Numbered from the stretch's first letter, positions 16,142 to 35,287 are shown. The stretch: 64,000 bases of DNA from Candidatus Omnitrophota bacterium (GCA_022711395.1 JAKLFA010000003.1:162509-226508); one strand, 5' to 3'. Made by a program: numbers and translations. Notes: generated from the letters alone by a model not told the origin.

Positions 16142-16156
16142 TGCACCCTCCGATTC

Positions 16157-18503: not shown

Positions 18504-19366
18504 CTCTGCCTCTTATGTAAAAACAGGTCCGCGGTCACGTTGATCATAAAACTGATCATAAACAGCACGATCCCGATTGCAAAAAGCGCGAAATAGTGTT
18601 CGCCGCCCACCACCGCCTCGCCCATCTCAGCCGCGACCGTCGCTGTTAACGTCCGCACCGGAACTAAAATTGTTTTCGGAATGACCGCGGCATTCCCGGT
18701 GATCATCATGACCGCCATGGTCTCGCCGATCACGCGGCCGATCCCCAGCATCACGGCAGCCAGAATCCCGCTGGATGAGGCCGGCAGCATGACGCGCCAG
18801 ATGGTCTGCCACTGCGTCGCGCCCAAGGCGAACGCGCCTTCTTTGTAATTTTTTGGGACTGAATACAGCGCGTCTTCCGCGACCGAAACGATCGTCGGCA
18901 TAGCCATGAACGCCAGCATGATCGACCCTGAAAGCGCCGTTAATCCCGTCGGTAAATTGAAAACGTTTTTGACCAGCGGAACAAGCGTCACCATGCCGAC
19001 AAATCCCAAAACAACACTGGGGATCGCGGCCAGCAATTCCACGCCCGCCTTGAGGACCTCTTTGGCCCACGCGGGAGCGATCTCAGCGATGTAAATGGCG
19101 CTTCCGACCCCGATAGGGATCGAGATGATCGCGGCGCCGATCGTGACCAGGATCGAGCCGAGGATCAACGGAAGGATGCCCAACTGAGGCGGTTCGGAAA
19201 TGGGATACCACTTGTGTCCTGCCAGAAAATCCGAAAGGCTGACCGTTTTAAATACGGCAAGCCCTTCTTTCATCAAAAAAAGGAAGATCAGCGCGACAAA
19301 AAATATCGACGCCACCCCGCAGGTGAGGATCAATTTTTCAACAATGAATTCTTTTGCTTTTCTCAT
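18500..19366 (-). CDS. pstC: Phosphate ABC transporter permease PstC.
   Basis: Permease with conserved PstC motifs, placed directly after pstS. Confidence 0.9.
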   Translation of the reverse strand: MRKAKEFIVEKLILTCGVASIFFVALIFLFLMKEGLAVFKTVSLSDFLAGHKWYPISEPPQLGILPLILGSILVTIGAAIISIPIGVGSAIYIAEIAPAWAKEVLKAGVELLAAIPSVVLGFVGMVTLVPLVKNVFNLPTGLTALSGSIMLAFMAMPTIVSVAEDALYSVPKNYKEGAFALGATQWQTIWRVMLPASSSGILAAVMLGIGRVIGETMAVMMITGNAAVIPKTILVPVRTLTATVAAEMGEAVVGGEHYFALFAIGIVLFMISFMINVTADLFLHKRQR

Positions 19367-19369
19367 ACA

Positions 19370-20224
19370 TCACTTTGTTAAGGGCACAAAATCCGTGACC
19401 CTGACAATGTCCTGCCCTTCTGGCGAAAGGGCGAAATTAACAAAACTTTCCACCAAACCCGACGGAACGCCTTTTGTATACAAAAAGAGCGGGCGCGATA
19501 TCGGATAATCCCCTTTCATGACATTTTCGATCACCGGCATGATATAGGGGTCCTTGTCCGTTTTTGCGATCGCAATGGGCTTTTGCTGAGCTGAAATATA
19601 TCCCATGCCGTAATACCCGATCGCGGCCGAATTCCCGGCGACCTCATCGGCGACCGCCTGGGACGATGAAAGCATCAAAGCGCCCGGCGCGAATTCTTCC
19701 TGAGAGTCAGGATCGTTCTTCCTTAAGACGTGTTCTTTAAAATACACATGCGTTCCGGAATTGACTTCGCGCGAAAGGATAACGATCGCTTCGTCCTTGC
19801 CGCCCAGCTCTTTCCAGTTCACGATCTTTCCGGTAAAGATCGCGGCAAGCTGATCCAGCGTTAACTGATCAACCGGATTGGCCGGATTGACCACGACGGC
19901 CAGGCCGTCTAAGGCGATCATAATTTCATTCGGGTTGATCCCTCTTTTTTGGGCCAAAGCAATTTCTTTCTCTTTAATATTGCGAGAACTCATCGCAATG
20001 TCGCATGTCCCGCTGATCAGGCTTGAAAGCCCGGTGCCTGATCCGCCGCCGGTCACCGCGACAAAGGCGCCGGGATTTTGCTGCATGTATTTTTCCGCCC
20101 AGGCCTGGACCAGATTGACCATGGTATCCGACCCCTTGACCTGAATAGAATTTTTTCTGGTCGCGGAACACCCGATCAACGCAAGCATGAATATCGCAAT
20201 GACAACGAGTCTCTTTTGAAACAT
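19370..20224 (-). CDS. pstS: Phosphate-binding protein PstS (periplasmic lipoprotein).
   Basis: Signal peptide with lipobox (LIGCS), the PstS phosphate-binding motifs (GGGSGTG, SSRNIK) and operon position. Confidence 0.9.
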   Translation of the reverse strand: MFQKRLVVIAIFMLALIGCSATRKNSIQVKGSDTMVNLVQAWAEKYMQQNPGAFVAVTGGGSGTGLSSLISGTCDIAMSSRNIKEKEIALAQKRGINPNEIMIALDGLAVVVNPANPVDQLTLDQLAAIFTGKIVNWKELGGKDEAIVILSREVNSGTHVYFKEHVLRKNDPDSQEEFAPGALMLSSSQAVADEVAGNSAAIGYYGMGYISAQQKPIAIAKTDKDPYIMPVIENVMKGDYPISRPLFLYTKGVPSGLVESFVNFALSPEGQDIVRVTDFVPLTK

Positions 20225-20304
20225 ATCCCCTCCTCATTTGCTTATACAGTATCTCTTGCTCAAACTAAAAACAAATTAAACCAATGTTAAATGGATGTAA
20301 AATC

Positions 20305-21003
20305 TCAAAACGACAATTTAAATTTCGCCCCCAGAACATTGGCGTCTTTCCATCCGGCAGAACCTTTAGAGCTCTGCAGCATGTAATAAAGCTCTGCTTT
20401 GAAATTTTCGGCAATCTTCATGCCCAGGCCGGAAGAAACCCTGTTTTGATTGAACGGGTCATCTTTCGTGAACTGGATAAATACCTCGTCAGAAAAAAAC
20501 GGCTGGATGTCAAACCGCGTAAACTTCCAGGGCAACTTAACAGTCAATTTATTACGATACCTGCCCTTGTCCTGCCGATCATCAAACTGCTGATACTCCA
20601 GGCGGCTGCGGTCCTCGACCTTAAACCCGGCCAGGTCACCCGAAACGGCCGCTGTCAAATACGGCTCATTTTCAGGGCTCCAATCCCCATTCGATTTTGT
20701 ACGGATATAGCGAAAACCAAACCCGAGATTCCAATGCTTGTTCAATTTGTAAACCAGGCCAAGGTCATAGTGCTGGTAATAGAATTCACTGATGTCCCCG
20801 CCCCAGCGGAATTCCTGTTCAAACGCGGCCTTCCAGGCATCAGAAATCTTTATTTCTTCAACGTTGGTATTCCAAAATTGGACATCGCCATCCTCGTAGG
20901 CAAAGGCTGGGCCCATGGGGACAAGCGCCGTCAACAGAACAATGAACAGGGCTTTTTTCATGCGTGTTCTCCTTTGAATGTTGTTGTATTTCTGCACAGT
21001 CAA
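20305..21003 (-). CDS. Small outer-membrane beta-barrel protein (DUF2490-like) embedded in the pho operon. Candidate Pi-regulated porin.
   Basis: Signal peptide, alternating amphipathic beta-strand pattern, C-terminal aromatic residue (KLSF), 232 aa. Lies between phoR and pstS on the same strand. Confidence 0.55.
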   Translation of the reverse strand: MTVQKYNNIQRRTRMKKALFIVLLTALVPMGPAFAYEDGDVQFWNTNVEEIKISDAWKAAFEQEFRWGGDISEFYYQHYDLGLVYKLNKHWNLGFGFRYIRTKSNGDWSPENEPYLTAAVSGDLAGFKVEDRSRLEYQQFDDRQDKGRYRNKLTVKLPWKFTRFDIQPFFSDEVFIQFTKDDPFNQNRVSSGLGMKIAENFKAELYYMLQSSKGSAGWKDANVLGAKFKLSF

Positions 21004-21044
21004 AAAGATTTTAATTGCGCATGATTAAATCGATCTCAAGAAAA

Positions 21045-21064
21045 AGTAAAATGTGCGTAAAATC
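21045..21064 (-). promoter_or_regulatory. Candidate Pho-box-like PhoB site. Two direct ATTTTAC heptamers separated by 4 bp (ATTTTAC-GCAC-ATTTTAC, minus strand), upstream of the barrel and pst genes.
   Basis: A 7+4+7 direct-repeat architecture with 11-bp periodicity, as in Pho boxes. It lies 13 bp after the phoR stop and about 45 bp before the barrel-gene start. The sequence differs from the E. coli CTGTCAT consensus. Confidence 0.3.
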
Positions 21065-21076
21065 TCGGAAAAGATT

Positions 21077-22861
21077 CTATGCTTTCGGAAGGGTGAACCA
21101 AAACTTGGAACCGGTGCCCTCGACGCTTTCCACGCCGACTTCTCCCCGGTGCTTTTCGACAATATGTTTGACGATCGAAAGCCCAAGCCCTGTGCCGCCC
21201 AGCTCGCGGGAACGGGCCCGGTCAACGCGGTAAAAACGTTCAAAAAGCCGGGGGAGATCTTTTTCCGGTATGCCGATGCCAGTGTCCTCAACGCAAATCT
21301 TAACGTGGGAACCCAAATCCTGACACGAGATGGTCAAGACGCCGTTATCCGTATTGAATTTTATTGCGTTATCGATCAGGTTGCTCAAGACCTGCGTCAA
21401 TTTGTCCATATCGCCGGCAACATAAAGGCCCGGCGGCAATTCATTCCGGACCGTCAATTTCATTTTCTGCCATTGGGACTGCGCCTCCGTCAAGGCCGCG
21501 TCCGCCAGCCGGGACAGGTCCACTTTTTCCCGGCGGAAAACGATTTCCTTTGACTCAAGGCATGCCAAAGACAACAGATCGTTGACCAGCGTGTTGAGCC
21601 GTTCGACCTGACCTTCAATGATCTTTAAAAAATTGCGGTTGTTCTGCCGGTCTTCCAGGGCGCCGGCCAAAAGCGTCTCAATGAACCCTTTGATGGTCGT
21701 CAACGGCGTCTTGAGCTCATGGGACACATTGGCGACAAAATCCTTTCGCATCGTTTCCAGGCGCTTGATTTCCGTGATGTCATGAATCACGGCAAGGCAG
21801 CCGCTGATCGATCCCCCCTCAAAAACAGGAGCCGCGTTGATCTGAAATATTTTACGGACCGGCAGCACAAAAGGGATCTCACGGGACACGGGCTTCCCCT
21901 CGCGCAAAACAGCGTTCATCAATTCGACCATATCATTATTGCGGACAACCTCCAGAAACGGGCGCCCGACAATATCCTTGTCGGGGATCCCGAAGATCCT
22001 TTCAAACGCCGGATTGATAGAAAGCACCTTTCCGGACCTATCGATCACCACAACACCTTCGACCATGCCATGGAACACCGCCTCCAGCTGCTGATTGCGC
22101 GCATCGGCTTCTTTTGTTTTTTCTTCCGTGCGCTGGGCCATGGTGTTTAACGTAGAGGCGAGCTCCGCGATCTCGTCCTGCGAGGTCGAAATGATCCGCC
22201 GGCTGTAATCCCCGCCGGATAATTTGCGTGAAACCTGGATCATGCGTTTGATCGGCCGGACCGCCCGCGCGATAAAATACACCCCAAGAACGAGCGCGAG
22301 ACAAAACGCGACCAGGACCCCGGCAGCGATCGTTTTCCTGGCTGTGCCCAGGATTTTTTCAACTTGTGTGGGTATCAGCGCCAGCCTCACGGCCCCGATG
22401 ATTTCGCCATGGCCTCTCAGCGGAAGCGCGACATACAGCATGTCTTTCTTTAAGGTGACCGAATAGCGGACCTCGGCGCCCGTGCTCCCCGACAGGGCCG
22501 CCCGGATCTCAGGACGTTTTGCGTGGTTTTCCATCTGACCGATCTGCGCCGGCGTCTCCTGCGAATCCGCCAGGACCCTGCCCTGGCTGGAAACGATCGT
22601 GATCCTGCAGTCTGTTCTATCCTTCAGCCGGTCCACCAGCGCCGCCAGCCGGGGGATGTCTTCTCTAATAAGGCTCTCGGCGGAAATCTGGTCCGCAATC
22701 AAACCGGCCTGCGTCATTAAGGAGGCCTTGATCTCCTGCATGGCATTCTTTTCGAAATTTTTTTCCAGAAAAAACGCGACAAACCCGAATGAAATAAAAA
22801 TGATGAGCAGGTAAGACAGTGTTAATTTTAGAGTGAGGCTGCGCACGGTTTTCATAAACAA
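21077..22861 (-). CDS. phoR: Phosphate regulon sensor histidine kinase PhoR (TM, HAMP, PAS, HisKA, HATPase).
   Basis: N-terminal TM segments, a PAS region, H-box ([12 protein letters not shown]), N and G boxes ([15 protein letters not shown]). Lies downstream of phoB. Confidence 0.85.
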
Positions 22862-22870
22862 TGAGCCCTT

Positions 22871-23563
22871 TTACCCTTCATGATCAAACCGGTATCCGTA
22901 GTTCTTGACCGTAACAATATGATCCGCGGCGGAACGGAGCTTCTTGCGCAAGGTCGTGACATGGACATCAACGGTGCGTGTCTGAATTTCAACGGCATGA
23001 TCAACACCCCAGACAACGTCTAAGAGATGCTCCCGGGAAAGGACCCGTCCATTCGCCTTGATCAGGGCTTTCAGCAGTTCAAATTCTTTAGAGGTCAGTT
23101 CCACGGCCTTGTTCTTTACGCTCACCTGGATCTTAGAGAAATCGACCTCCAGATCACTGATCCGCATCACTTCCGGCAGCTGTCCCTGCCTTTTGCTTCG
23201 GCGCAAAACAGCCTTGATCCGGGCCAACAGCTCCCGAAGGCTGAAGGGCTTGGTCACATAATCATCCGCTCCCAATTCCAGCCCGACGATCTTATCCGCT
23301 TCCTGGCTCTTGGCAGTGAGCATAATGATGGGAATCGCCGCGGTCTTGCTGTGCCGGCGAAGCTCCTTACAAACCTCAAATCCGTCCATTCCCGGAAGCA
23401 TGAGATCAAGAAGGATGAGGTCCGGATGGTCCCGCGTGGCGGCTTCAACCGCCTGGGAACCATTGCTGACAGATGCCGTGCGGTAACCTTCTTTCTGAAG
23501 GTTATACTCAAGCATTTTCACAATATCATGTTCGTCTTCAACGATCAGGATGAGCTGTTTCAT
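22871..23563 (-). CDS. phoB: Phosphate regulon response regulator PhoB (OmpR family).
   Basis: REC domain (DD..D54..K) plus a winged-helix C-terminal domain, 230 aa, 9 bp upstream of phoR. Confidence 0.85.
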   Translation of the reverse strand: MKQLILIVEDEHDIVKMLEYNLQKEGYRTASVSNGSQAVEAATRDHPDLILLDLMLPGMDGFEVCKELRRHSKTAAIPIIMLTAKSQEADKIVGLELGADDYVTKPFSLRELLARIKAVLRRSKRQGQLPEVMRISDLEVDFSKIQVSVKNKAVELTSKEFELLKALIKANGRVLSREHLLDVVWGVDHAVEIQTRTVDVHVTTLRKKLRSAADHIVTVKNYGYRFDHEG

Positions 23564-23796: not shown

Positions 23797-26700
23797 CTAC
23801 TCTTCTGTTTCATCGGGAAAACTGCCCGTATTCCCACCCTGCTGCGTGCGGTCCTCAATGAGCTTAAATACCGAAAACATATCAATAGAGCTGCTCCCGG
23901 CTCCCGGGCCCATGGCATAAACGTCGCCCGGGGAAGACGCCCCGGACGCCTCGCCGGAACCCCCGGAAGAAGTTTCCTGCGTTCCATTCACCGCTTGCTG
24001 CAGGCTCGTCAAGGACCTGACCACAGTATCGATGTCCGCGCTGCCTGGAGCAGAGGCGATCGTCAACGTGCCGTTGGCATAATTTACCGCGTATCCCAAT
24101 AAGGACGTGTAGCCGCTGGGCGTGATCGTATACGTTCCAATCGCCATGGCCCCCTGGGACGTGCCTCCATACGACACGCTCCCGCTCAAGGCCTGCGCCG
24201 AGGTGTCGCCGTTTTGAAGGCCGGTCATGCCCACCCCATTCCCTCCGGAATACGCCAGACCGTCATAAGTCTTGCTGTCATTGGAGGCCGTTACCGTAAC
24301 GGCCGGCTGCTCGCGGTAAACCGCGTAATGACCGGCTCCTAAGGCCGTTGAGAAATTTGACGCGCTTTCATCGCTGTTGTATCGGAACTTCCCGCTTCCC
24401 GAGCCGATCAGCGCCGTCAGCCCCGTGCTGTCGCTGACGTCACCGGAATACAATGTCGCCCTCCCGCCTGCGCCGACCGTAACGCTTCCGCCGCTGACAA
24501 TAATATTTCCGCCGGTGGATGTTCCGGCCGCGGTATTTTTTCCGGCATTCAACACAATCGCGGAATTCCCCGTGTTTGTTGTTTCGATGGCCCCGGCCAG
24601 TGTCAAATCCCCTGTCAATGTCGCCGCGCTTACTGTTCCGGTCGAATTGACGGCGGCCAGCGTCATGGCGTTGCTGTCGATAATGCTGATATCATTGCCT
24701 GAAACAACGGACACCGCGCCGGTAAAATCATTGCTGGTATTATTTAGCGTGATCTGTCCCGCCCCCGCCGTTAAACTGGTTGTCCCTCCAATGTCCAGCG
24801 AGCCTGTCCCCGCGATGTTTCCGGTTGAACTCAGCACAAGGGATCCGGTGCCTGTGGAGGCAATGGAACTTCCTGCCGTGCTCAGATTGATGCCGTTCGT
24901 GCCGGTGTCCTTAACGCCGGTGATGGAAATTGTTCCGTTCTGGGAACTGACTGTGCCACCTGATATGGCTGTCCCGTCAGAAGAGCCGTAGGCCTGTCCT
25001 GAGATCGTGATCGTTCCCTCACCTGTCGTCGATACTGTCCCGCCGATATGCACGCCGCGGGCATACTCCACAGCGTTCGAGCCCTGCCCATTGATGATGA
25101 TGTTACCGCCCAACGCGTTGATCGTCCCATTAATCGCGGCCCCGCGCATCAAGGAGTTGGACTCATAACTTGTCAGATTGATCCCCATCGCCCTGGTCGT
25201 TGCGGGAGTGGCCCCGCCCCCGATCGTCACATACCCGCCGTTGGTTTCGATCGATGATCCCGATGAAAGCCAAAATCCTCCAGCCGCCCCCGCACTGCCG
25301 GGATTGATCAAGACGTTTAATTTATTCGAGGTGGAGCTGATCGCACTTGGGTTATTGTTCGCCAGATTGCTTGATAATCCGGAAGCGATATACCCGGATG
25401 AGCTGTCGGCAGTCGTAATATACGAGGTTGCCTTGAGCGTCAGTGTCGCATCTGACCCGCTGGTCTTAGAAATATCGCCATTGACCAATACCCGGCCGTT
25501 GCCGGCCTCGACCGTGAGGTCTTCCACCATCGTGATCGTGTCGGTGATATCGATCTTCGCGTTATTTTTTAATATCGTATCATCATTAAACGTCACCGCT
25601 CCGCCAACAGTAATATCCCCGGCTGTCGCGTTGCCGATCGTGACGCTGGAAAAACCGTTCGCAAAATTCGTTGAAAAATAACTCGCCGCAATATCCAACG
25701 TGCCGGCGCCGGTCGTACCAATATTGATTGCCCGGCTTGTATAGGGTTCGATAGTCAGGGTGCCGCTGCCGGAGATTGTGTGATTGGCGCCAATACTGAG
25801 AAGATTGGTCTTAAGAATCGTGTTCCCCGTCCCGGCATTAAAACTATGGGCATTAGCACCGGCATAGATATCCACATAATTGGGGGACTCTACAGTAATG
25901 TCTCCGCCGTTGGTCGTTGTCATGTTCTGGGAAATTCCAACACCTTTGGCAGTGTTGACTGTGTTGTGGCCATAAAGGGTGATTCCACCCGCCCCAGCGG
26001 TGATACGGGTATATCTCGAGCTAAGCTGCGAACTGGAAAGCCCGTGATAGTTCGTATTTGAACTTGTGCCGCTGATATTCACCGTACCGGCGTTGATGTC
26101 TAAATAACTGCCGGACGGAGCGCCGTCCAACCACGCGGACAACTCGATGCCCGCATAAGAAGAAGACTCTCCGATCATGGTGAGTGTGCCGCTGCCGGCA
26201 TCCAGCGTTCCGCTATGGGAATAATTGATCCCCATCCCTGTTCCGGCGCCGGCCGTGCTTTTACCTTTTATAAAAATATTACCGCCGCCTGATTGAATCG
26301 TTGTCCCGGCTGTCGCCGCATTATTCAATCTTCCTATACTGACCCCGCTGTAAGTAGCGGTTGCTGTCGCAAAACCATCCGGCCTGCCGTCGCTGTTGTC
26401 GTCAGCCCCGCCCGCCATCACAATATCACCGCCGTTGGTGTCAACCACAGTGCCATCGTAAAGAAAAATGTAGCCGTTATTATTCACGTCTGCATCCGCC
26501 CACAAGACCGTATCCAATGCCCCTGTTGAGGATTCAATTGAACTGCCGGCATCCATAATGATCGAGCCGGTTGTTTTCACCGTCAGCGAGGCGTCATTGC
26601 CATAAGCGTTTGTGATGGATTTACTAGCCTGTAAAGTAAAATCCGTCGCTGCATTGGTCTGCGTCAACGTTGTCGCCGCCGCACCCAGCGTGATATCGCC

Positions 26701-29244
26701 GGCATAGGTCTGAAGTCCTTCGGTTGTTACCGCTCCGCCGTTGATCGCGATCCCATTGTCAGCAGATGACGTGACGTTCAGTGACGCCAGGGCCTTGCTG
26801 GTCCCGACCGCGCCGGAAAACGTCACCGTTCCCGCCCCGGCGTCGATCGTGACCGGGGACGCGGCAAGATTTGTTTCTTTGACATAATGAGCAAGCGTGC
26901 CGGTGGAAGCCGCGAGGTCATTCCATTGGCCTTCGGTCCCGGTAAACTGCAGGGCCGATTCATAATCCAATCCTCCTGACACCGGGCGTGTCTGCGAAGG
27001 GCTTCCGCCGTAGTTATTCGGTTCTCCGCTGCTCCAATTCGTGAATGCCCCATCGATCGCCGCCCCTCCGCCGGAATCGCTCTGCGTAAAAAACTGCCGG
27101 CCTTTTTCGCCATCCTCGGTTCCTTCCGGCCCGGCCACCCAGCGCCACACCGCGTTGGTGCTTGGGGTCAGCCCGACCACGCGCCGCCCCCCCAGCCAGG
27201 ACGGTTCGTAATTCACGGTCCTGCCCGCGATCGCGTTTTCCAAACGGGAGGTGATCGTTGCTAAATAGGTATCGTCGACCTCGCTGCCGTCACCTTCCGA
27301 TCCAAGCTCTGCGTTTCCTAATGCTTGGGTCCATGTTCCCGTATACGCCACATCGGTATAACTATTCCCGGAATTCAGCAGGCCGTAAAACCTGACGTTG
27401 CCGCCATTGGTCGTAATAATCAAACCGTCGGTATTTCCGACCAGCATCTCCCCTTTAACATTAACGGCCCCGCCGTTGGTCGAGATCGTCCGTGTGCCTG
27501 ATCCTGCCACATACACGTCCCCGCCGACCATGGTCGTCACGCCGTTCAAATCGATCGTGCTGCCGTCACCAAAATTCACGTAACCGCCGTTGGTGGTAAT
27601 GTCCTCGTTAAGCAAAATAATGCCGTCACCGTCATGTGCGCCGTTATCGTTATCTGCCAGCACATCCACGTTCAACTTGCCTGTCCCTCCGTCATTGCTG
27701 ATCCCCGCGTTGATCGTGATCGTTTTTGCCGCCTGCAATGTCAACGTGACATCTGTATCACCGGATCCCTTGGAGATCGCGCTGCTGACGGTAATGTTCC
27801 CGTTCTGGGTCCCGGCGCCGGCGGTCGTGACATTGACGCTGGTTCCCCCTTCCAGCAAACCGTTGATCGTTGTGTTTAAAATGGTTGAATCGTTGCCGGT
27901 GGCGACCCATGTCCCTGAAGAAAAACTTCCGCCGGAAGTCGCCGTGGTGATGGTGACATTATACGGATCGAACAACCAGATCCCGGCATCTCCGTGAGGG
28001 GCGATCGCTCCGCCTGTCACGCCAGCCGTGTCCAGCCAATGACCGGAGGTTTCGATCCGCCCGCCGTCGCCGCCGTTCATCCCGCCTCTGGCTAAAAATG
28101 TTCCGTAAGCCCGCGTGACCGAATCAGGATCCGTAACATCTGACCACGCGACAACAGTTCCGCCGTCGCCGCTCTCCGTGGCGCTCGCGTCAAGCAAAGC
28201 CCCGTTTGAAATCACAACGCCGGTCGCCTCATAGATTTCAGGATCGGAACCCTGCCAGCCTCCGCCCGCATAGATCTCTCCGCCGCCTGTCGATCCTCTT
28301 GCCAAAACCTCAGCGCCTTCTTCAACAAGGACCCTCTCCCCCGTCGCCACAACTTTCCCGCCGATGGATCCTTCCGATGACACATCCACAGTGCCCGCGA
28401 TCGTTACCTGCCCGTTTTCCCCAGCGGCCAGAAAGATCCTTCCGCCCTGCTCGCTGATCCCTTTCGCCTCAAGAACGCCATCGTTATTGACGACCGCGTT
28501 CGTTAATTCATCTTTCGCCAGGGCGGTCATCACAATCAACCCGCCGTCGGCTTTAATCAGCTGCTTGTTCTCGGCCAAAGCATCGACAGCGCCTTCCTCA
28601 ACATTGTAATTGATCAGCTGATCTCCAAAAAAATCCAGGCTGACCTTGTCGCCCGCAGCCATCAAAACACTTCCCTCGGAAGAACTGATCTGTCCCTCAT
28701 TACGGACAACGGGGCTCAATAACGCGACATACCCGCCTTCCCCGGAAAGGATCTGCCCCTGATTCAGGACCATGCCCGCGGCCCCGGCGTTTTCAAAAAT
28801 AAAATTCCCGTTCAGAAAATTTTCATCGGATATATTTAAAGAAGAAGCGACCAGACCGCCCACATTGACCTGAGCGGAGGGACCGAAAATGATCCCGGCG
28901 GAATTTAAGAGAAAGACCTGCCCGTTGGCGCTCAGGTTTCCGAAGATCTGGCTGGGATTCTGATCAAAGATACGGTTAAGGGCAACGCTCGAGGAGGCGG
29001 GCTGTATAAATTGAACAGCGGCATCCTGCCCGATATTGAACGTGTTCCAGTCGGCGATCATCCGGTCCGTATACTGGTTGACGGTCATGCCGGACCCGCT
29101 TTGGCTGATATCACCGCTTCCGGATACGATCGTCCCTCCGGTGGGAAGTTCTTGAACATCAACAGCCAGGGCAGGCAGCCCGCTCACGTGGAGAAAAAAA
29201 CACAGCGCCAGACCGGCGCGAAAAAAACGCCCAAAGGATTTCAC
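23797..29244 (-). CDS. Two-partner-secretion exoprotein TpsA (about 1815 aa). It has an N-terminal TPS secretion domain, a long Gly/Thr/Asn-rich beta-helical repeat region, an embedded C-type-lectin-like segment and a C-terminal MBG-like domain.
   Basis: Hemagglutination-activity (TPS) domain signature (NQYTDRMIADWNTFNIGQDAAVQF...NPSQIFG...NSAGIIFG). Probable GTG start at 29244 with an AAAGGAGA RBS 6 nt upstream; the ORF-track start at 29403 would overlap tpsB. It lies 17 nt downstream of tpsB. Confidence 0.85.
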   Translation of the reverse strand: MKSFGRFFRAGLALCFFLHVSGLPALAVDVQELPTGGTIVSGSGDISQSGSGMTVNQYTDRMIADWNTFNIGQDAAVQFIQPASSSVALNRIFDQNPSQIFGNLSANGQVFLLNSAGIIFGPSAQVNVGGLVASSLNISDENFLNGNFIFENAGAAGMVLNQGQILSGEGGYVALLSPVVRNEGQISSSEGSVLMAAGDKVSLDFFGDQLINYNVEEGAVDALAENKQLIKADGGLIVMTALAKDELTNAVVNNDGVLEAKGISEQGGRIFLAAGENGQVTIAGTVDVSSEGSIGGKVVATGERVLVEEGAEVLARGSTGGGEIYAGGGWQGSDPEIYEATGVVISNGALLDASATESGDGGTVVAWSDVTDPDSVTRAYGTFLARGGMNGGDGGRIETSGHWLDTAGVTGGAIAPHGDAGIWLFDPYNVTITTATSGGSFSSGTWVATGNDSTILNTTINGLLEGGTSVNVTTAGAGTQNGNITVSSAISKGSGDTDVTLTLQAAKTITINAGISNDGGTGKLNVDVLADNDNGAHDGDGIILLNEDITTNGGYVNFGDGSTIDLNGVTTMVGGDVYVAGSGTRTISTNGGAVNVKGEMLVGNTDGLIITTNGGNVRFYGLLNSGNSYTDVAYTGTWTQALGNAELGSEGDGSEVDDTYLATITSRLENAIAGRTVNYEPSWLGGRRVVGLTPSTNAVWRWVAGPEGTEDGEKGRQFFTQSDSGGGAAIDGAFTNWSSGEPNNYGGSPSQTRPVSGGLDYESALQFTGTEGQWNDLAASTGTLAHYVKETNLAASPVTIDAGAGTVTFSGAVGTSKALASLNVTSSADNGIAINGGAVTTEGLQTYAGDITLGAAATTLTQTNAATDFTLQASKSITNAYGNDASLTVKTTGSIIMDAGSSIESSTGALDTVLWADADVNNNGYIFLYDGTVVDTNGGDIVMAGGADDNSDGRPDGFATATATYSGVSIGRLNNAATAGTTIQSGGGNIFIKGKSTAGAGTGMGINYSHSGTLDAGSGTLTMIGESSSYAGIELSAWLDGAPSGSYLDINAGTVNISGTSSNTNYHGLSSSQLSSRYTRITAGAGGITLYGHNTVNTAKGVGISQNMTTTNGGDITVESPNYVDIYAGANAHSFNAGTGNTILKTNLLSIGANHTISGSGTLTIEPYTSRAINIGTTGAGTLDIAASYFSTNFANGFSSVTIGNATAGDITVGGAVTFNDDTILKNNAKIDITDTITMVEDLTVEAGNGRVLVNGDISKTSGSDATLTLKATSYITTADSSSGYIASGLSSNLANNNPSAISSTSNKLNVLINPGSAGAAGGFWLSSGSSIETNGGYVTIGGGATPATTRAMGINLTSYESNSLMRGAAINGTINALGGNIIINGQGSNAVEYARGVHIGGTVSTTGEGTITISGQAYGSSDGTAISGGTVSSQNGTISITGVKDTGTNGINLSTAGSSIASTGTGSLVLSSTGNIAGTGSLDIGGTTSLTAGAGQITLNNTSNDFTGAVSVVSGNDISIIDSNAMTLAAVNSTGTVSAATLTGDLTLAGAIETTNTGNSAIVLNAGKNTAAGTSTGGNIIVSGGSVTVGAGGRATLYSGDVSDSTGLTALIGSGSGKFRYNSDESASNFSTALGAGHYAVYREQPAVTVTASNDSKTYDGLAYSGGNGVGMTGLQNGDTSAQALSGSVSYGGTSQGAMAIGTYTITPSGYTSLLGYAVNYANGTLTIASAPGSADIDTVVRSLTSLQQAVNGTQETSSGGSGEASGASSPGDVYAMGPGAGSSSIDMFSVFKLIEDRTQQGGNTGSFPDETEE

Positions 29245-29260
29245 GGGTCTCTCCTTTTCA

Positions 29261-30979
29261 TTAGAACCAGATTGTGGCCTGGGCCCAAACCCGGCCGCTT
29301 TCATCCTGATTATCAGAATTGTTGTCGAACGCGTCCCGTCCGGGATTCTTTCCCAGCGCGTGAGCATACGAGAACTGCAGGCGATACGATCCCTGCTTTT
29401 CAAAATTCACACCGGCGCCCACGCCGGACAGCCAATAGTGGTTCCGGCCCGAAATATTCGTCACGGAATTGGACCACGTCCCTTCATGGAGCCTCACCTG
29501 GCCGGCATCAACAAAACCCACCAGCTGTGTCTTGAACGCGGTCTTTAAAGGCAGATCGTAGCGGTTTTCAAACGTCAGGATATGGCCCGTGTCACCGGAA
29601 GCCTCTCCGATCGGATACGCGCGCACGCCCGTGGGCCCTCCCAGAATGATTTTTTGTGATGAATCAAGATTTCCGTCGGCGAACTGCCCCCTGGCAGAAA
29701 AGAAGAGCGACGTGTTTTTCGTCGCCCGCTGCAGGCGCGCCAGGGCATACGTTGCCCGTGAAAAATTTCCGCTCACGCGCGCCCCTGAATCATCCCCAGA
29801 GCTCCCATCCGTGATATTCACGCTTCCGGCGTAAAACGACATCAGAGCGCTGGTCAGCCCCCCTCGGAAAAACTCATCATAAAAATTCCCCGTTAAATTC
29901 AGGTTCGCGGCGGAAACGCTGCGGTCACTGGTCACGTCTCCGGCGGATTTGTCTTCCAGCAAATACTGCTCATATCCTGATCCGATCCAGACGCTGGCCC
30001 TTCGTGTCCGCTTGACCGGATACTTAAGGTTCGTCCCGAAGGTGTGAGCGGAACCCTTGGCCTGCAGGTCTTTTAGCTTTCCGCCTAGCTCATAACGCAG
30101 CCCATTATACGAAAAATCCGCGATCGCGCCACGGGACCCGACAGGAAGCGAAAGATCCGCCCGGCCCTGATTCAGATCATCGGCGTTGATGTAGGTCATC
30201 CTCAAAAGATCGCCTTTTCCTAACGAATCAATAAGGGCCACCTGCCCGGTCCGGCGGAATCTGCCGGTATACCGGTTGCCGAAATTGTCGCCTGACACCG
30301 TTGCGGCGACCCACCGCCCTTCCTTGGAAAGCAGCGATAGGCGCGACGTCCCGGGGACCTCTCCTTTATCCAGATAAGCCCTGGCTGAGACGCCGGGAAG
30401 GTCGTTCATCAATAAGACCGCCCGCTCCACATCCTTGAGCATCACGGTCTCGCCTTCGGCAATAGACTGCCTCGCGATCCGTTCAAGAAACGTTTTGTTG
30501 ATCCGGTGATCGCCATCGATCGAAACGCCGACCTTGCCATCCAGGCGCCCCACGCTGACCGCGATGATAACATTTCCTTCGGTCACGTCCTGCTGAGGAA
30601 GATACGCCCGCGCCAGAAGATAGCCTTTCGTTTCTCTTAAATATAGGGTGATCTTCTGCGCCAAGCGCTGCAGGTCAGCGAACGAAACCTCATTCCCCAC
30701 GCAGGGCGCAGCTATCTTCTCAAGCTCTTTCAGGGAAACGACCTTTTCATAGCCTGTAAATTCGAAACTTTTAACGCGGACTTTGATCCCGGGATCGGCG
30801 GTCATCTCCGGGGGAGCTTCGATCTCAGCGGACGAAGACGCCGGCGGTGTTCTTTGAAGATCGACCTGTTCCTGCTGGCGTAATATCGATCCGGAATCCG
30901 GAGGGGCGGCCAAAACAGGAAAACAAAAACTAAAAAGAGAAATTAAAACGGAACAGAGAAGGAGATTTTTTATTTTCAT
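29261..30979 (-). CDS. Two-partner-secretion outer-membrane transporter TpsB (ShlB/FhaC/HecB family, POTRA + Omp85-like barrel).
   Basis: Signal peptide, POTRA-like N-terminal region, and a C-terminal barrel with conserved motif (RAYPIGEASGDTG...). 572 aa. Immediately upstream of tpsA. Confidence 0.85.
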   Translation of the reverse strand: MKIKNLLLCSVLISLFSFCFPVLAAPPDSGSILRQQEQVDLQRTPPASSSAEIEAPPEMTADPGIKVRVKSFEFTGYEKVVSLKELEKIAAPCVGNEVSFADLQRLAQKITLYLRETKGYLLARAYLPQQDVTEGNVIIAVSVGRLDGKVGVSIDGDHRINKTFLERIARQSIAEGETVMLKDVERAVLLMNDLPGVSARAYLDKGEVPGTSRLSLLSKEGRWVAATVSGDNFGNRYTGRFRRTGQVALIDSLGKGDLLRMTYINADDLNQGRADLSLPVGSRGAIADFSYNGLRYELGGKLKDLQAKGSAHTFGTNLKYPVKRTRRASVWIGSGYEQYLLEDKSAGDVTSDRSVSAANLNLTGNFYDEFFRGGLTSALMSFYAGSVNITDGSSGDDSGARVSGNFSRATYALARLQRATKNTSLFFSARGQFADGNLDSSQKIILGGPTGVRAYPIGEASGDTGHILTFENRYDLPLKTAFKTQLVGFVDAGQVRLHEGTWSNSVTNISGRNHYWLSGVGAGVNFEKQGSYRLQFSYAHALGKNPGRDAFDNNSDNQDESGRVWAQATIWF

Positions 30980-31231: not shown

Positions 31232-31290
31232 GGGGCTACCAGTCACAAAAAAACCCGCATCTTTCGATGCGGGTTGTGACTGGTAGCCCC
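31232..31290 (-). terminator. Extended hairpin plus terminator after tRNA-Glu. The inner stem (CCCGCATC-GAAA-GATGCGGG) is followed by a T-run. The 17-bp outer stem pairs the tRNA 3' end (GGGGCTACCAGTCACAA) with an inverted copy.
   Basis: Perfect nested inverted repeats read directly from the sequence. The T7 run follows the inner stem on the minus strand. Confidence 0.55.
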
Positions 31291-31358
31291 AACCGGATTT
31301 GAACCGGTGTTTAAAGACTGAGAATCTTCCGTCCTGGACCAGGCTAGACGATGGGGCC
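31281..31358 (-). tRNA. tRNA-Glu (anticodon CUC), CCA-encoded.
   Basis: Manual cloverleaf. Acceptor GGCCCCA/TGGGGCT; D-arm TCGTCTAG...GGAC, typical of tRNA-Glu; anticodon stem GAAGA/TCTTT; loop TTCTCAG; T-arm ACCGG-TTCAAAT-CCGGT. Confidence 0.8.
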
Positions 31359-31650: not shown

Positions 31651-31668
31651 TAATTGAAGGATATCCAT

Positions 31669-32859
31669 ATGGCCCTTTCCGTGGGGATCGGTTTCAATAA
31701 TGACAAGAACTCAAATCTGGCGGCCGCAGCCGCGATCGAGCAGGCAAAACGCAAGATCCATGTCAACCGCATCGACCTGATCCTGGTTTTGGCTACCCCC
31801 CATTATTCACCGGAAAACATCATACAGGCGATCGGAGACCGCCTTGATTCTCCGCGGGTCATCGGTTGCTCGACCGAAGCTATCATCATTGATCGTGTGA
31901 TCCATAAACGGGGTGTCGCGGTCGCGCTGTTCCACTCCAATCAAATGAAATTTGAGACCGGCTCGGTCCAGCATTTGAACCTGCAGAACCCCCAGCAAGC
32001 TGCCGCATCCCTGATCCATTCCTGCAAATCGGAGTACGGAGAAAAGGAGCGCCGTCTGTTCTTCGTGTTCACGGAAGGCGCCCCCAACAACATCCCGGCC
32101 ATCCATCATCACCTGCGCAAAGAGCTCAAAAACGAACCGGAAATGCCGATCCTGGGGTCTTCCGCCACCAATATGGTCGCTCCTGACAGTTCCTTTCTTT
32201 TTCATAACAATGAAACGGTCAAAAAAGCCGCCACGGTTTTTGTCCTTGGCGGGAAAGCGACCGTCAAGACGGTCACCCGGCACGGCTGGCATCCCATCGG
32301 CCGCCCGAGATTTGTGGATAAGAGCAGCCATCACATCATCCATTCGATCGATGGTCGTCCGGCGATTGAACTCTACAAAACATTTTTTCCCGAGCAATAT
32401 CATTTATTAAAAGACCCTTCTTCTTCGCTGAACCTTTATTATCCTTTGGGCATCGCCAGCGGGAAGCGGGGCACCTTCTTTATCCGAAATATCATAGATG
32501 TCCTTGACGACGGCAGTATCGTCTGCAATGATAATGTGGATTCCGGTTCCCAGGTCCATATCATGCTGGGCAACAAAGATTCCTGCCTGCAGGTCACCAA
32601 AGAAGCCATCCAAGAGTTCAAAGGCTTTTTTTCTGACCAGCCAACAGGCCTGGCCCTGGTCATCGTGTCCGAAAAGCATCACCGGATCCTGGGGCGTTCC
32701 TTTGAACGGGAGCTCGCTTTTGTCAAACGCGCCGCTGGAGAAAATATCCCTGTTTTTGGATTTGTCAGTTACGGAGAGATTTTTGACACGGGAGACGCTT
32801 GCCAGCAGACTCTCAATTCAAGACAAAACAATAATTTAACCTTAATCGGGATAAAATAA
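31669..32859 (+). CDS. FIST-domain sensory protein (FIST_N + FIST_C).
   Basis: Typical FIST N-terminus (MALSVGIGF...) and conserved architecture. Probable start is the ATG at 31669 with an AAGGA RBS; the ORF-track start at 31654 is upstream. First gene of a three-gene signalling operon. Confidence 0.7.
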   Translation: MALSVGIGFNNDKNSNLAAAAAIEQAKRKIHVNRIDLILVLATPHYSPENIIQAIGDRLDSPRVIGCSTEAIIIDRVIHKRGVAVALFHSNQMKFETGSVQHLNLQNPQQAAASLIHSCKSEYGEKERRLFFVFTEGAPNNIPAIHHHLRKELKNEPEMPILGSSATNMVAPDSSFLFHNNETVKKAATVFVLGGKATVKTVTRHGWHPIGRPRFVDKSSHHIIHSIDGRPAIELYKTFFPEQYHLLKDPSSSLNLYYPLGIASGKRGTFFIRNIIDVLDDGSIVCNDNVDSGSQVHIMLGNKDSCLQVTKEAIQEFKGFFSDQPTGLALVIVSEKHHRILGRSFERELAFVKRAAGENIPVFGFVSYGEIFDTGDACQQTLNSRQNNNLTLIGIK

Positions 32860-32867
32860 AATTACCT

Positions 32868-34343
32868 ATGTTGTGGGCCGTTCTGATAACCCTTTTTCTC
32901 TGCCTGATCGCCGGAGGGGCGTTTGTCGCCATTCATCAAAGAAGTAAGATCAACGCCCTTTCTGAGGCGGTCCAGCGGTTCAAGGATTCCTTTGATGAGA
33001 TCGATGAACAGGCCAAGCTGATCATCAAGACCGACCTTGAGCTTAACCGCACCCAGGAGGAACTGGATAAGCGCCTCAAAGGGCTCGACGCTCTTCAGGC
33101 GATCTCACGGCTGGTCAGCACGACTTTGGATGAACATGAGATCTTTGAGCTTCTGGGCGAGCCCCTTGTCGCTGACATGGGCCTGGAACAATATTATTTC
33201 CTGATCCTGAACAGCGAAGGCTCCCTGAATTGCGCCGCCCATCTGGGTTCCACGGCAGAGGAAGCGAAGCGCATCCTCTCTTTGGTCGGAAACAACCTAA
33301 CGCTCATTGACCAGCTCAAAAGCCGGCAGACCATTTCGTCCATTAATGCCACGGATGAAGAGCGCTCTTTTTTCACAAGACACTTAAAAACACGGCATTT
33401 TATCATCACACCGATCATGGCCAAGAACACCATGCTGGGCATTCTGATCGCCACCAGCCATTCGACGACATACGCCGTTTCGGAAGGGGATGAAGAGATC
33501 TCATCGATCCTGGCGGACCAGATCGGCCAGGCCATCCAGAACGCCAGGCTGTTCGAGGAGGTCTATCACTCACGCCAAAAACTGGAGATCATGGTGCAGG
33601 AGCGCACCCGGCAGCTCCAGGAAGCCCTTTCCAACGTCCAGCAGGTCAGTAAAATGAAATCCGAATTTATTTCCGCGGTCTCGCACGAGCTGCGCACCCC
33701 CCTGACCTCGATCAAAGGGTACGCTTCGCTGTTAAGTTCCGGTAAACTGGGCGATATTCCTGACACCGTGCGCCAGCGCCTGGAAAAGATCAATCATCAT
33801 TCCGACAGCCTGGTGCAGCTGATCAACAATCTGCTGGATATTTCCCGTATTGAATCCGGAAAGACCAGCATGAACCGTAAGAAAATGCCGATCGTTCCGG
33901 TCATTGAGAACGTCCAGGACCTTCTCATGCCGCAGCTTAAAGACAAGAACGTCCAGCTTATCATCCAGATCCGTCAGCCCCTTCCGGAGCTTCTGATCGA
34001 CCAAAGCCAGATCGAACGCGTCTTTATCAATCTGGTCGGCAATGCCATCAAATTCACCCCTTCCCAGGGAACGATCACCGTCAGCGGAGAACCCAGGGAA
34101 AGTGACGCGCTCTTTAAGGTCACGGACACCGGGATCGGCCTCAAAGAAGACGAACGCCGCAAGCTGTTCAATGAATTTTACCGTGTCGACAATGAGATCA
34201 ACCAGAACGTGAAAGGCTCAGGCCTCGGCCTTTCCCTGGCGAGGAAGATCATTGAGGCGCATAACGGCCAGATCTGGGTCGAAAGCGTTTACAAAAAAGG
34301 TTCCACCTTCGCCTTCACGATCCCGCTTGATGATCAAAAATAA
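32868..34343 (+). CDS. Sensor histidine kinase with an N-terminal TM helix, coiled coil, GAF domain, HisKA and HATPase_c.
   Basis: H-box (SHELRTPLTSIKGY), N box (NLVGNAIKF), G1 (DTGIGL) and G2 (GSGLGLSLA). A GAF-like region lies between the coiled coil and HisKA. Confidence 0.85.
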   Translation: MLWAVLITLFLCLIAGGAFVAIHQRSKINALSEAVQRFKDSFDEIDEQAKLIIKTDLELNRTQEELDKRLKGLDALQAISRLVSTTLDEHEIFELLGEPLVADMGLEQYYFLILNSEGSLNCAAHLGSTAEEAKRILSLVGNNLTLIDQLKSRQTISSINATDEERSFFTRHLKTRHFIITPIMAKNTMLGILIATSHSTTYAVSEGDEEISSILADQIGQAIQNARLFEEVYHSRQKLEIMVQERTRQLQEALSNVQQVSKMKSEFISAVSHELRTPLTSIKGYASLLSSGKLGDIPDTVRQRLEKINHHSDSLVQLINNLLDISRIESGKTSMNRKKMPIVPVIENVQDLLMPQLKDKNVQLIIQIRQPLPELLIDQSQIERVFINLVGNAIKFTPSQGTITVSGEPRESDALFKVTDTGIGLKEDERRKLFNEFYRVDNEINQNVKGSGLGLSLARKIIEAHNGQIWVESVYKKGSTFAFTIPLDDQK

Positions 34344-34354
34344 AGGAGTTTGGA

Positions 34355-35287
34355 ATGCCGAAAGAACGCATTTTAACGATCGACGATGACCCGGATATCC
34401 TGGACGTCCTCGATCTGACCTTATCCGAACACTACGATGTCCTGCAGGCCCCTAACGGAAAAGAAGGACTGTCGATCCTGCAAAGCAAGACCCCCAATCT
34501 GGTGATCTGCGACTACATGATGCCAGTCATGAACGGTAAAGATTTCTGCAAAGCGGTCAAAAAAGATGTCCTGTTGCGCCACATCCCGATCATCATGCTC
34601 ACCGGCAAAGGCGAGGTCCATGACATGATCGGGGGGATCGAAGCGGGTGCGGACGATTATATCGTTAAGCCCTTCGAACCCGAAGCCCTGCTGGCGCGGA
34701 TCCGAATGATCTTGCGCCGCACCGAACAGAGCCTGGACGCCAACCCGTTGACCCATCTTCCCGGAAACACCTCCATTACCGAAAAACTGCAGGAATGCAT
34801 TGACAGCAAATCGCCTTTTGCCGTCGGGTATGCCGACCTTGATAAATTCAAGATCTACAATGACAAATACGGGTTCGAAAAAGGCGATGAGGTGATCCGT
34901 GAGACGGCACGCATCCTGATCAAGAACGTCCGGCAGCTCGCCGGAGAGGACGCGTTTATCGGGCACATCGGAGGCGATGATTTTGTTTTTATCACCAAAG
35001 ACAGCGTCATCGATGACGTCTGCCGGGCCATCATCCATGAGTTCGACACCAACAGCCCGATGTTCTATTCGCAAGAGGACCGCGAAGCAAAATTCATCAT
35101 CGGAAAGGACCGGCTCGGCAACGAGACCCGCGCCGGACTTCTGTCCATCTCGATCGGGATCGTCAGCAACGCTCACACCGAGATCTCCCATATCGCTCAA
35201 GTGAGCGAAATAGGGGCAGACCTCAAGAAATATGCCAAGACATTTGATAGAAGTGTTTTTGTGAGGGACAAGCGTAAAGCGCTATAG
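34355..35287 (+). CDS. Response regulator with REC domain fused to a GGDEF-type diguanylate cyclase domain bearing a non-canonical GGDDF motif.
   Basis: REC motifs (DDD...D53...K). GGDEF domain start (LTHLPGN) and the active-site pentapeptide read as GGDDF (nt 34970-34984). Confidence 0.8.
   Translation: MPKERILTIDDDPDILDVLDLTLSEHYDVLQAPNGKEGLSILQSKTPNLVICDYMMPVMNGKDFCKAVKKDVLLRHIPIIMLTGKGEVHDMIGGIEAGADDYIVKPFEPEALLARIRMILRRTEQSLDANPLTHLPGNTSITEKLQECIDSKSPFAVGYADLDKFKIYNDKYGFEKGDEVIRETARILIKNVRQLAGEDAFIGHIGGDDFVFITKDSVIDDVCRAIIHEFDTNSPMFYSQEDREAKFIIGKDRLGNETRAGLLSISIGIVSNAHTEISHIAQVSEIGADLKKYAKTFDRSVFVRDKRKAL

Follow-up and report, generated by a model that had tools for sequence, protein, structure and literature searches.

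A cryptic, cysteine-free C-type lectin-like domain within a TpsA exoprotein of a Candidatus Omnitrophota bacterium

The DNA analysed here, a 64-kb stretch of 64,000 nucleotides from a Candidatus Omnitrophota bacterium (GCA_022711395.1, JAKLFA010000003.1:162509-226508; hereafter the window), carries on its minus strand a two-partner secretion (TPS) locus in which tpsB, encoding the outer-membrane transporter, precedes tpsA, encoding the exoprotein, and in which the passenger of TpsA harbors a C-type lectin-like domain (CTLD) without cysteines. An initial annotation had proposed such a domain at 26899-27327 in a TpsA host, and both parts of the proposal hold. The host is a genuine TpsA, matching Pfam TPS and NCBIfam adhes_NPXG and having an adjacent TpsB with POTRA_2 and ShlB domains upstream, and the minus-strand translation of 26899-27327 yields the cysteine-less motif string that was described, reading ...DDTYLATITSRLENAIAGRTVNYEPSWLGGRR...AVWRWVAGPEG...GAFTNWSSGEPNNYGG...YESALQFTGTEGQWNDLAAS, or in continuous form '...DDTYLATITSRLENAIAGRTVNYEPSWLGGRRVVGLTPSTNAVWRWVAGPEGTEDGEKGRQFFTQSDSGGGAAIDGAFTNWSSGEPNNYGGSPSQTRPVSGGLDYESALQFTGTEGQWNDLAAS...'. 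The plus-strand reading of the same interval is interrupted by many stops and was rejected, thus placing the feature on the minus strand. Residues 693-835, as originally assigned to the stretch, agree with the mechanical open reading frame (ORF) 23797-29403(-), which counts 1868 codons from the most upstream TTG. The limits, however, were drawn too narrowly: the stretch does lie inside the domain, but the domain is larger, with beta1 and alpha1 upstream ('SYTDVAYTGTWTQALGNA') and beta5 ('HYVKETN') downstream, and in a 453-aa structural model it occupies about 165 residues (Table 1).

Public gene calls on the identical protein start at ATG 29304 (1835 aa) or at GTG 29244 (1815 aa). The 1815-aa form corresponds to NCBI HSA30551.1, a 'filamentous hemagglutinin N-terminal domain-containing protein' from a Candidatus Omnitrophota metagenome-assembled genome (MAG). 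The GTG start gives a typical signal peptide and lies 16 nt after the tpsB stop; the 53 codons upstream of it in the mechanical ORF (29245-29403(-)) overlap the 3' end of tpsB. Residue numbers used throughout are those of the mechanical ORF, and exceed those of the 1815-aa protein by 53 and those of the 1835-aa call by 33.

The identity of the domain emerges from its relatives. While a first word-indexed homologue search returned 2 proteins only, running phmmer exhaustively over 1.84 billion cluster representatives gave 388 relatives at E<=1e-3, 105 of them at E<=1e-10. The matching segments of 54 relatives were aligned (alignment A1), and a separate alignment was made of the TPS-linked copies with their flanks (alignment A2). 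Pfam Lectin_C was matched by 43 of the 54 relatives in A1, the best at 1.3e-14. Against the PDB, the A1 profile matched 148 distinct CTLD sequences at E<=0.01, led by CD23 (5.8e-15) and including the PLA2 receptor, Endo180, collectin placenta 1, MGL, MBP-A/C, ASGR1, DC-SIGN and langerin. The A2 profile, built from TPS-linked copies only, matched MBP-C, human MBP, ASGR1 and SP-D at E from 1.5e-5 to 7e-4; in these alignments EPN, E and WND coincide with those of the lectins. In addition, a query-independent profile made from 49 non-TPS relatives, each less than 42% identical to the query, scored 108 bits on TpsA residues 711-844. Given that the relatives match Lectin_C, that the family profile matches CTLDs in the PDB, and that the independent profile reaches 108 bits, the segment is identified as a CTLD by a transitive link.

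The elements of the fold follow one another in the expected order: beta1, alpha1 (TWxxAxxxA), alpha2 (TSRLENAIA), WLGG, WRW, the long-loop region, EPN, E, WND and beta5. The core motifs TWTQALGNA (alpha1), WLGG and WRW are all present, and neither A1 nor A2 shows any variation at the W, G and W. Membership in the FGE-sulfatase type of CTLD was considered and rejected, Lectin_C being the sole lectin-fold family matched among the 54 + 24 members scanned. A second CTLD was looked for elsewhere in the window and not found. Pfam, NCBIfam and the precomputed annotations of public collections place no lectin family on this TpsA.

Structure prediction gives the same answer. An AlphaFold2 (AF2) model of residues 702-845 (144 aa), made with A1, had a predicted local distance difference test score (pLDDT) of 87.1 and a predicted template-modelling score (pTM) of 0.83, and its Foldseek top 50 in the PDB were all CTLDs at probability 1.00. 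Their template-modelling (TM) scores were only about 0.5 because the construct omitted beta1 and alpha1. A second model, covering residues 543-995 (453 aa including flanks) and made with A2, had pLDDT 91.0 and pTM 0.90; its top 50 again contained CTLDs only, with target-normalised TM of 0.68-0.81, the best-quoted match being MBP-C (1rdi; TM 0.81, root-mean-square deviation 3.1 A). In this model beta1 is a long strand, 'SYTDVAYTG', and alpha1 is 'TWTQALGNA' (the W..A...[C] pattern), both of which precede 'YLATITSRLENAIA' (alpha2). The model has two helices, two antiparallel sheets and a long-loop region, with the N- and C-terminal strands paired. The structural check suggested with the initial annotation thus finds, in two AF2 models and by Foldseek, a CTLD fold rather than coils of a beta-helix. 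On both sides of the domain the passenger consists of short, regularly spaced strands with pLDDT >90. No beta-helix structure was among the Foldseek top 50 for the 543-995 model; the secondary-structure pattern and the pTM, rather than measured geometry, lend good support to the view that the CTLD would sit within a beta-helix.

All five ligands of the principal Ca2+ site of animal carbohydrate-recognition domains (CRDs), namely E-P-N, E and N-D, are present in the HMMER alignments, and the WxxGEPNN and WND motifs singled out in the initial annotation align with the EPN and WND of MBP-C, MBP and CD23. In the structures of MBP-A with oligomannose, the principal Ca2+ is held by these five side chains, which also form hydrogen bonds to the two equatorial hydroxyls of mannose-type sugars. 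In animal CTLDs, EPN goes with specificity for mannose, N-acetylglucosamine (GlcNAc), glucose or fucose, and QPD with specificity for galactose. When 66 TPS-linked and 67 other copies were aligned to the profile, EPN was kept in 61/66 and 61/67, respectively, with a few QPD, QPS and QPN variants in its place. The Glu at the position of E815, which we take to be the equivalent of MBP-A Glu193, was kept in 64 of the TPS-linked and 65 of the other copies, and WND in 65 and 62, its W and D being invariant in A1. Such conservation in both groups argues for a working site, and a carbohydrate target may reasonably be predicted from the conserved EPN/E/WND ligands.

The auxiliary Ca2+ site (site 1), formed in MBP-A by Asp161, Glu165, Asp/Asn188 and Asp194, is not retained. 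In this copy the Asp161 position holds Arg741 and the Asp194 position Ser, E815 being followed by Ser-Ala where canonical CTLDs have Asp-Cys. This replacement distinguishes the TPS-linked copies as a group: the Asp161-equivalent, just after WLGx, is Arg in 59/66 of them vs Asp in 45/67 of the others (Fisher p = 5e-15), and the Asp194-equivalent is Ser or Thr in 44/66 vs Asp in 33/67 (p = 1e-6 for Asp). The auxiliary site is not needed for CRD membership, as several animal CRDs lack it. Two further elements adjoin the principal site. The 34-residue insert between WRW and FTNW carries a nearly invariant G-P-E motif and is typical of the whole bacterial subfamily, in which its median length is 32-34 residues, and the loop from EPN to the conserved Glu, 18 residues long here, is hypervariable in length among relatives (4-30).

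Cysteines occur in the ORF at residues 9 and 68 only, the former before the likely start and the latter inside the signal peptide. The CTLD and the entire mature TpsA are devoid of them, and both canonical disulfides (C1-C4 and C2-C3) are absent; since the whole mature protein is cysteine-free, the CTLD would fold without disulfides. Ala stands at the C1 position, where it is invariant in A2, and at the C2 position. The C2-C3 pair is found in 0/66 TPS-linked vs 6/67 other copies (p = 0.03), and cysteine makes up 0.07% of residues in whole TPS carriers vs 1.2% in the other proteins bearing the domain. While in the periplasm, TpsA substrates are in an unfolded state, their translocation is thought to be driven by extracellular folding, and a disulfide-bonded loop holds the C-termini of HMW1 and HxuA in the TpsB pore, preventing passage (PMC5422565). 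The loss of cysteines fits unfolded secretion through TpsB, to which it may be causally linked.

The architecture recurs in environmental bacteria. In a local phmmer comparison, 67 of the 150 best representatives had a TPS-like N-terminus; their CTLD begins at median residue 637, and 5 of the 67 contain two CTLDs. At 50% identity, at least 66 clusters combine TPS and CTLD. The domain and its flanks can be aligned as one block (mean column identity 46%) and therefore form a conserved module. The three closest loci among GTDB representatives, from one Steroidobacteraceae MAG and two 'Planctomycetales' MAGs, each hold TPS and CTLD in one ORF, and one of them (L003) also has TpsB upstream, in the same B-then-A gene order as here. 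The other relatives comprise a variety of surface proteins from Firmicutes, Bacteroidota, Planctomycetota, Actinomycetota and Poseidoniales archaea. Related contigs have anaerobic-digester biomass as their source habitat. Proteins found by word-indexed search with the A1 profile were all short (<=248 aa) and had Lectin_C, with or without PEP-CTERM. Side observations illustrate the range of the subfamily: a partial giant non-TPS ORF of a Rubripirellula MAG (L014 3-14597(+), >4865 aa) contains nine copies, and short proteins of about 200 aa pair Lectin_C with a PEP-CTERM sorting signal. This bacterial CTLD subfamily is widespread and little studied. The TPS-linked clade falls mostly below Pfam thresholds and is largely missed by standard annotation: Lectin_C reaches E<=0.01 in only 3/24 TPS-linked segments, and 0/6 of the full-length relatives with a Pfam-called TPS domain show it. 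The claim that a lectin module is not a standard TpsA architecture holds for the literature searched, with the qualification that the arrangement, given its many clusters, is no one-off.

We favor the reading that the segment is a genuine CTLD in a type Vb TpsA and serves as a Ca2+-dependent, EPN-type lectin module of an adhesin, and put its probability at roughly 0.68. Several points weigh against it. Pfam Lectin_C gave no match to this copy at E<=1, either with the full protein or with the 163-aa segment, so that the profile check suggested at the outset succeeded through the relatives and the family profile but not with the protein's own sequence. Within the model, confidence is low solely in the loop that joins EPN to Glu (pLDDT <50 at construct positions 263-269), and with the disulfides and the auxiliary site absent, loop geometry and Ca2+ affinity could differ from those of animal CTLDs. 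The mapping of MBP-A residues, taken over from the MBP-A structures through the HMMER alignments, is presumed to hold, and the 'other' group in the conservation counts includes some N-terminally truncated TpsA fragments. Sugar binding is a prediction from sequence, and lateral display from the beta-helix is suggested by the secondary-structure pattern and pTM. Finally, for numerous proteins with the CTLD fold the ligand is not a sugar but protein, ice or CaCO3.

This last point leads to a competing reading in which the fold is accepted but the ligand is not a carbohydrate, the domain being a protein-binding or structural Ca2+ module, or else a Ca2+-triggered folding element that pulls the chain from TpsB. 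The tip domains of intimin and invasin and the CTLDs of natural killer (NK) receptors provide models, and many CTLDs do not bind sugar, as is generally known (Zelensky & Gready 2005, cited in PMC8092209). The lost disulfides and auxiliary Ca2+ site point the same way, and so does the idea that extracellular folding drives TPS translocation (PMC5422565). Non-sugar CTLDs, however, typically lose EPN/QPD and WND, while here the five ligands are kept in >90% of the 66 TPS-linked copies; occasional QPD variants recall galactose-type lectins, and the best sequence matches are the true lectins MBP, ASGR, CD23, SP-D and MGL. We therefore regard a non-carbohydrate ligand as unlikely. The conserved sugar-site ligands are equally compatible with a self ligand, such that the CTLD would bind the producer's own lipopolysaccharide (LPS), O-antigen or capsule and keep TpsA on the producing cell. 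That the mature protein lacks cysteines, and hence a disulfide C-terminal anchor of the HMW1/HxuA type (PMC5422565), would suit such self-retention. Yet nothing in the window ties the locus to a particular glycan biosynthesis cluster, and the domain also occurs in many non-TPS surface proteins of Gram-positives, Bacteroidota and archaea, in up to nine copies, which looks like general multivalent adhesion. The variable length of the loop adjoining the site, moreover, suggests diversifying targets, and self-retention appears rather improbable.

Two other explanations concern the nature of the segment itself. The variable proteins of diversity-generating retroelements (DGRs) use the C-type-lectin fold and are common in uncultured host-dependent lineages, so the domain might be a CLec-fold variable domain of the phage Mtd or Treponema TvpA type, mutagenised by a reverse transcriptase. 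But the window contains no template copy of the CTLD DNA, the best off-diagonal blastn match being 16 nt and no repeat of it exceeding 16-20 nt, and the nearby ORFs that were scanned are metabolic or signalling genes, although no search aimed at reverse transcriptases was made. CLec domains also lack the Ca2+/EPN/WND site that is intact here, and the profile matches are to Lectin_C and not to FGE-sulfatase/CLec, all of which makes a DGR target very improbable. A chance resemblance of the motifs within ordinary beta-helix repeats draws on the failure of the protein's own sequence to reach Lectin_C and on the weakness of the single-sequence phmmer matches in the PDB (E 0.14-5), all of which are nonetheless CTLDs (MBP, SP-D) and fall on the FTNWxxGEPNN stretch. 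Against the 108 bits of the independent profile, the 148 solved CTLDs matched by the family profile, and AF2 models showing two helices and a CTLD topology that matches CTLDs only, we give chance almost no credence.

If the segment is indeed an EPN-type lectin module, TpsA would be exported by Sec, kept unfolded in the periplasm, recognised by TpsB via the TPS domain and threaded through the outer membrane, to fold outside the cell. Because its N- and C-terminal strands lie side by side, the CTLD could form an excursion between two coils of the shaft. One Ca2+ would be held by Glu794, Asn796, Glu815, Asn828 and Asp829 and would ligate two vicinal equatorial hydroxyls of a terminal sugar, predicted from EPN to be mannose, GlcNAc, glucose or fucose, while the length-variable loop and the GPEG insert beside the site may tune which glycan is accepted. 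The cell, or the released protein, would thereby adhere to a glycan-bearing surface such as the envelope of another microbe, an S-layer or biofilm polysaccharide.

Most Omnitrophota have been proposed to live by predation or parasitism, attaching to other cells, and the attachment candidates published so far are pili, Tad complexes and giant ORFs (PMC10066038). The main text of that study (PMC10066038) contains none of the words 'hemagglutinin', 'lectin' and 'two-partner'. A lectin-bearing TpsA is a plausible attachment factor. A bolder proposal, which we consider doubtful but advance tentatively, is that TPS-linked cysteine-free CTLDs are an unrecognised class of host- or prey-recognition domains. 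Here the lectin would select the envelope to which an Omnitrophota nanobacterium, of a phylum proposed to comprise largely epibiotic predators or parasites, attaches, be it an archaeal S-layer glycan, a sheath or bacterial extracellular polysaccharide. The loop would set the host range, and the Asp-to-Arg change together with the loss of disulfides would permit unfolded threading of a metazoan-type lectin fold through TpsB. The window also encodes the full biosynthetic enzymes glutamate synthase (GOGAT), carbamoyl-phosphate synthase (CPSase) and NAD synthase, and a host-dependent lifestyle is not demonstrated here.

Apart from the TPS domain and the CTLD, TpsA shows a C-terminal segment (23797-24900(-)) of the form 'KTYDGLAYSGG...GTYTITPSG...NYANGTLTI' that resembles MBG/YDG domains, and relatives carry Pfam MBG_2 and YDG in this region. 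At its very end the chain runs into a low-complexity tail rich in Ser, Gly and acidic residues; it lacks a Cys anchor, and neither a toxin nor a CdiA-CT domain could be recognised. Downstream of tpsA on the same strand lie genes for an OmpR-type response regulator (22871-23563) and a Cache/HAMP/PAS histidine kinase (21077-22861), then a DUF2490 gene, which is called on the minus strand in public contigs of identical sequence, and a PstS-like binding protein (19370-20224), followed by a run of ORFs of 224-288 aa (18500-19366, 17655-18503, 16909-17661 and more), all within 15467-23563(-). The arrangement resembles phoBR plus pstSCAB, so that the two-component system probably regulates a Pho regulon and not the TPS operon. 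Divergent from tpsB, at 31654-35287(+), are genes for a FIST-domain protein, a GAF histidine kinase and a response regulator fused to GGDEF, a cluster that possibly links cyclic di-GMP to surface adhesion. A tRNA-Glu(CTC) gene (31281-31358(-)) lies about 300 nt upstream of tpsB, and G+C is 0.56 in tpsA and 0.59 in the CTLD, compared to 0.53 in the whole window; the higher G+C and the adjoining tRNA could hint at horizontal acquisition of the TPS operon. The other large ORFs in the window, considered as additional TpsA or TpsB genes, instead encode GOGAT, NAD synthase, CPSase and an unannotated 2676-aa protein. The sole match of the 2676-aa ORF (45058-53088(-)) is a sub-threshold HATPase_c_3 (GHKL ATPase) at residues 1993-2076, with 24.7 bits vs a cut-off of 25. 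Large unannotated ORFs are a noted feature of Omnitrophota.

Table 1. Features of the tpsBA locus and of the CTLD in TpsA (window coordinates; residues numbered in the mechanical ORF)
Feature	Position	Strand	Basis
tpsB, outer-membrane transporter	29261..30979	-	Pfam POTRA_2 3.2e-15 and ShlB 5.2e-13 (ShlB/FhaC barrel)
tpsA, exoprotein, 1815 aa from GTG	23797..29244	-	Pfam TPS and DUF5649 only; NCBIfam adhes_NPXG 2e-22
Predicted Sec signal peptide VKSFGRFFRAGLALCFFLHVSGLPALA, residues 54-80	29164..29244	-	read from sequence; putative cleavage site
TPS secretion domain, residues 86-339	28387..29148	-	PF05860, E 4.4e-35, 122 bits, cut-off 33.5
Complete CTLD, residues ~681-845	26869..27363	-	AF2 models, Foldseek, profile searches
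34-residue insert 'VAGPEGTEDGEKGRQFFTQSDSGGGAAIDGA' between WRW and FTNW	27037..27138	-	AF2: helix and beta-hairpin
E794-P795-N796 (EPN), predicted Ca2+ site-2 ligands	27016..27024	-	aligned to MBP-C, MBP, CD23
Variable loop NYGGSPSQTRPVSGGLDY between EPN and conserved Glu	26962..27015	-	low model confidence
E815, predicted third Ca2+ site-2 ligand	26959..26961	-	aligned to Glu of 'GE(N/D)C'
W827-N828-D829 (WND), predicted last two Ca2+ site-2 ligands	26917..26925	-	HMMER alignment
DUF5649 repeat, residues 1515-1566, C-terminal part of TpsA	24706..24861	-	PF18886, 4.3e-10

What is new here is the combination of a TpsA with a cryptic, cysteine-free, EPN-type CTLD, both components being familiar. 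The usual description of a TpsA adhesin is of a long beta-helix with binding activities assigned to poorly defined loops. Here a discrete ligand-binding module is pinned to exact residues, making the target of a TpsA directly testable. A canonical Ca2+/EPN C-type lectin can exist without any disulfide, which suits a route that needs unfolded, cysteine-poor substrates, and those who engineer CTLDs gain a natural point of comparison in the Arg that replaces the auxiliary Ca2+. Because a clade of at least 66 clusters is largely invisible to Pfam, metagenomic TpsA proteins are under-annotated. For Omnitrophota, a phylum without isolates whose lifestyle has so far been deduced largely from pili, Tad complexes and giant ORFs lacking functional annotation, the protein provides a candidate factor in cell-cell recognition.

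The domain shares its fold with the animal Ca2+-dependent CRDs (PF00059: MBP-A/C, CD23, ASGR1, MGL, SP-D, DC-SIGN), at a target TM of 0.68-0.81, and has in common with them TWxxA in alpha1, a WIGL-type 'WLGG', WxW, 'xTNWxxGEPNN', and the Glu plus WND; its EPN is that of the animal mannose, GlcNAc and fucose binders. Unlike them, it has neither disulfide, with Ala at Cys1 and Cys2, has its auxiliary Ca2+ site 1 replaced, and contains a 34-residue GPEG insert and an 18-residue loop between EPN and Glu. Its setting is a bacterial beta-rich exoprotein rather than a collagen or coiled-coil stalk, and it goes undetected by Pfam. The nearest relatives are bacterial and archaeal Lectin_C surface proteins belonging to the 'WRWVTGPEG' subfamily; they are direct homologues, 30-45% identical, and share the GPEG insert and the EPN/E/WND ligands. 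The non-TPS copies of this subfamily mostly keep Asp at the two auxiliary positions, and a few keep the C2-C3 disulfide; in contrast to the TpsA CTLD, they have no attached TPS domain and are mostly recognised by Pfam.

A CTLD-fold module on a type V secreted adhesin has a precedent in the C-terminal domains of the type Ve proteins intimin and invasin, which are the only lectin-like domains mentioned in a 2017 review of TPS, no CTLD being described there in a TpsA (PMC5422565). In those proteins the module stands at the distal tip, whereas the CTLD of TpsA is internal, cysteine-free and equipped with sugar/Ca2+ ligands. The intimin and invasin domains are not known to have the Ca2+/EPN/WND site; they bind proteins (Tir and integrins) and keep a disulfide. 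A search of the open-access full-text literature found no paper describing a CTLD within TPS, FHA or TpsA proteins. EtpA is a TpsA with blood-group-A lectin activity; in the literature covered, none of FHA, EtpA, HMW1 and HxuA is described with a CTLD, and the glycan binding of EtpA and FHA is not assigned to one. With the TpsA adhesins FHA (Bordetella), EtpA (enterotoxigenic Escherichia coli), HMW1 and HxuA, the protein studied here shares the TPS domain and, by prediction, secretion by TpsB and a long, probably beta-helical passenger (PMC5422565). For these four, loops or elements outside the helix, positioned along the shaft, have been held responsible for adhesion (PMC5422565); the present TpsA carries a discrete lectin domain, predicted to fold independently and inserted at about residue 630 of the mature protein.

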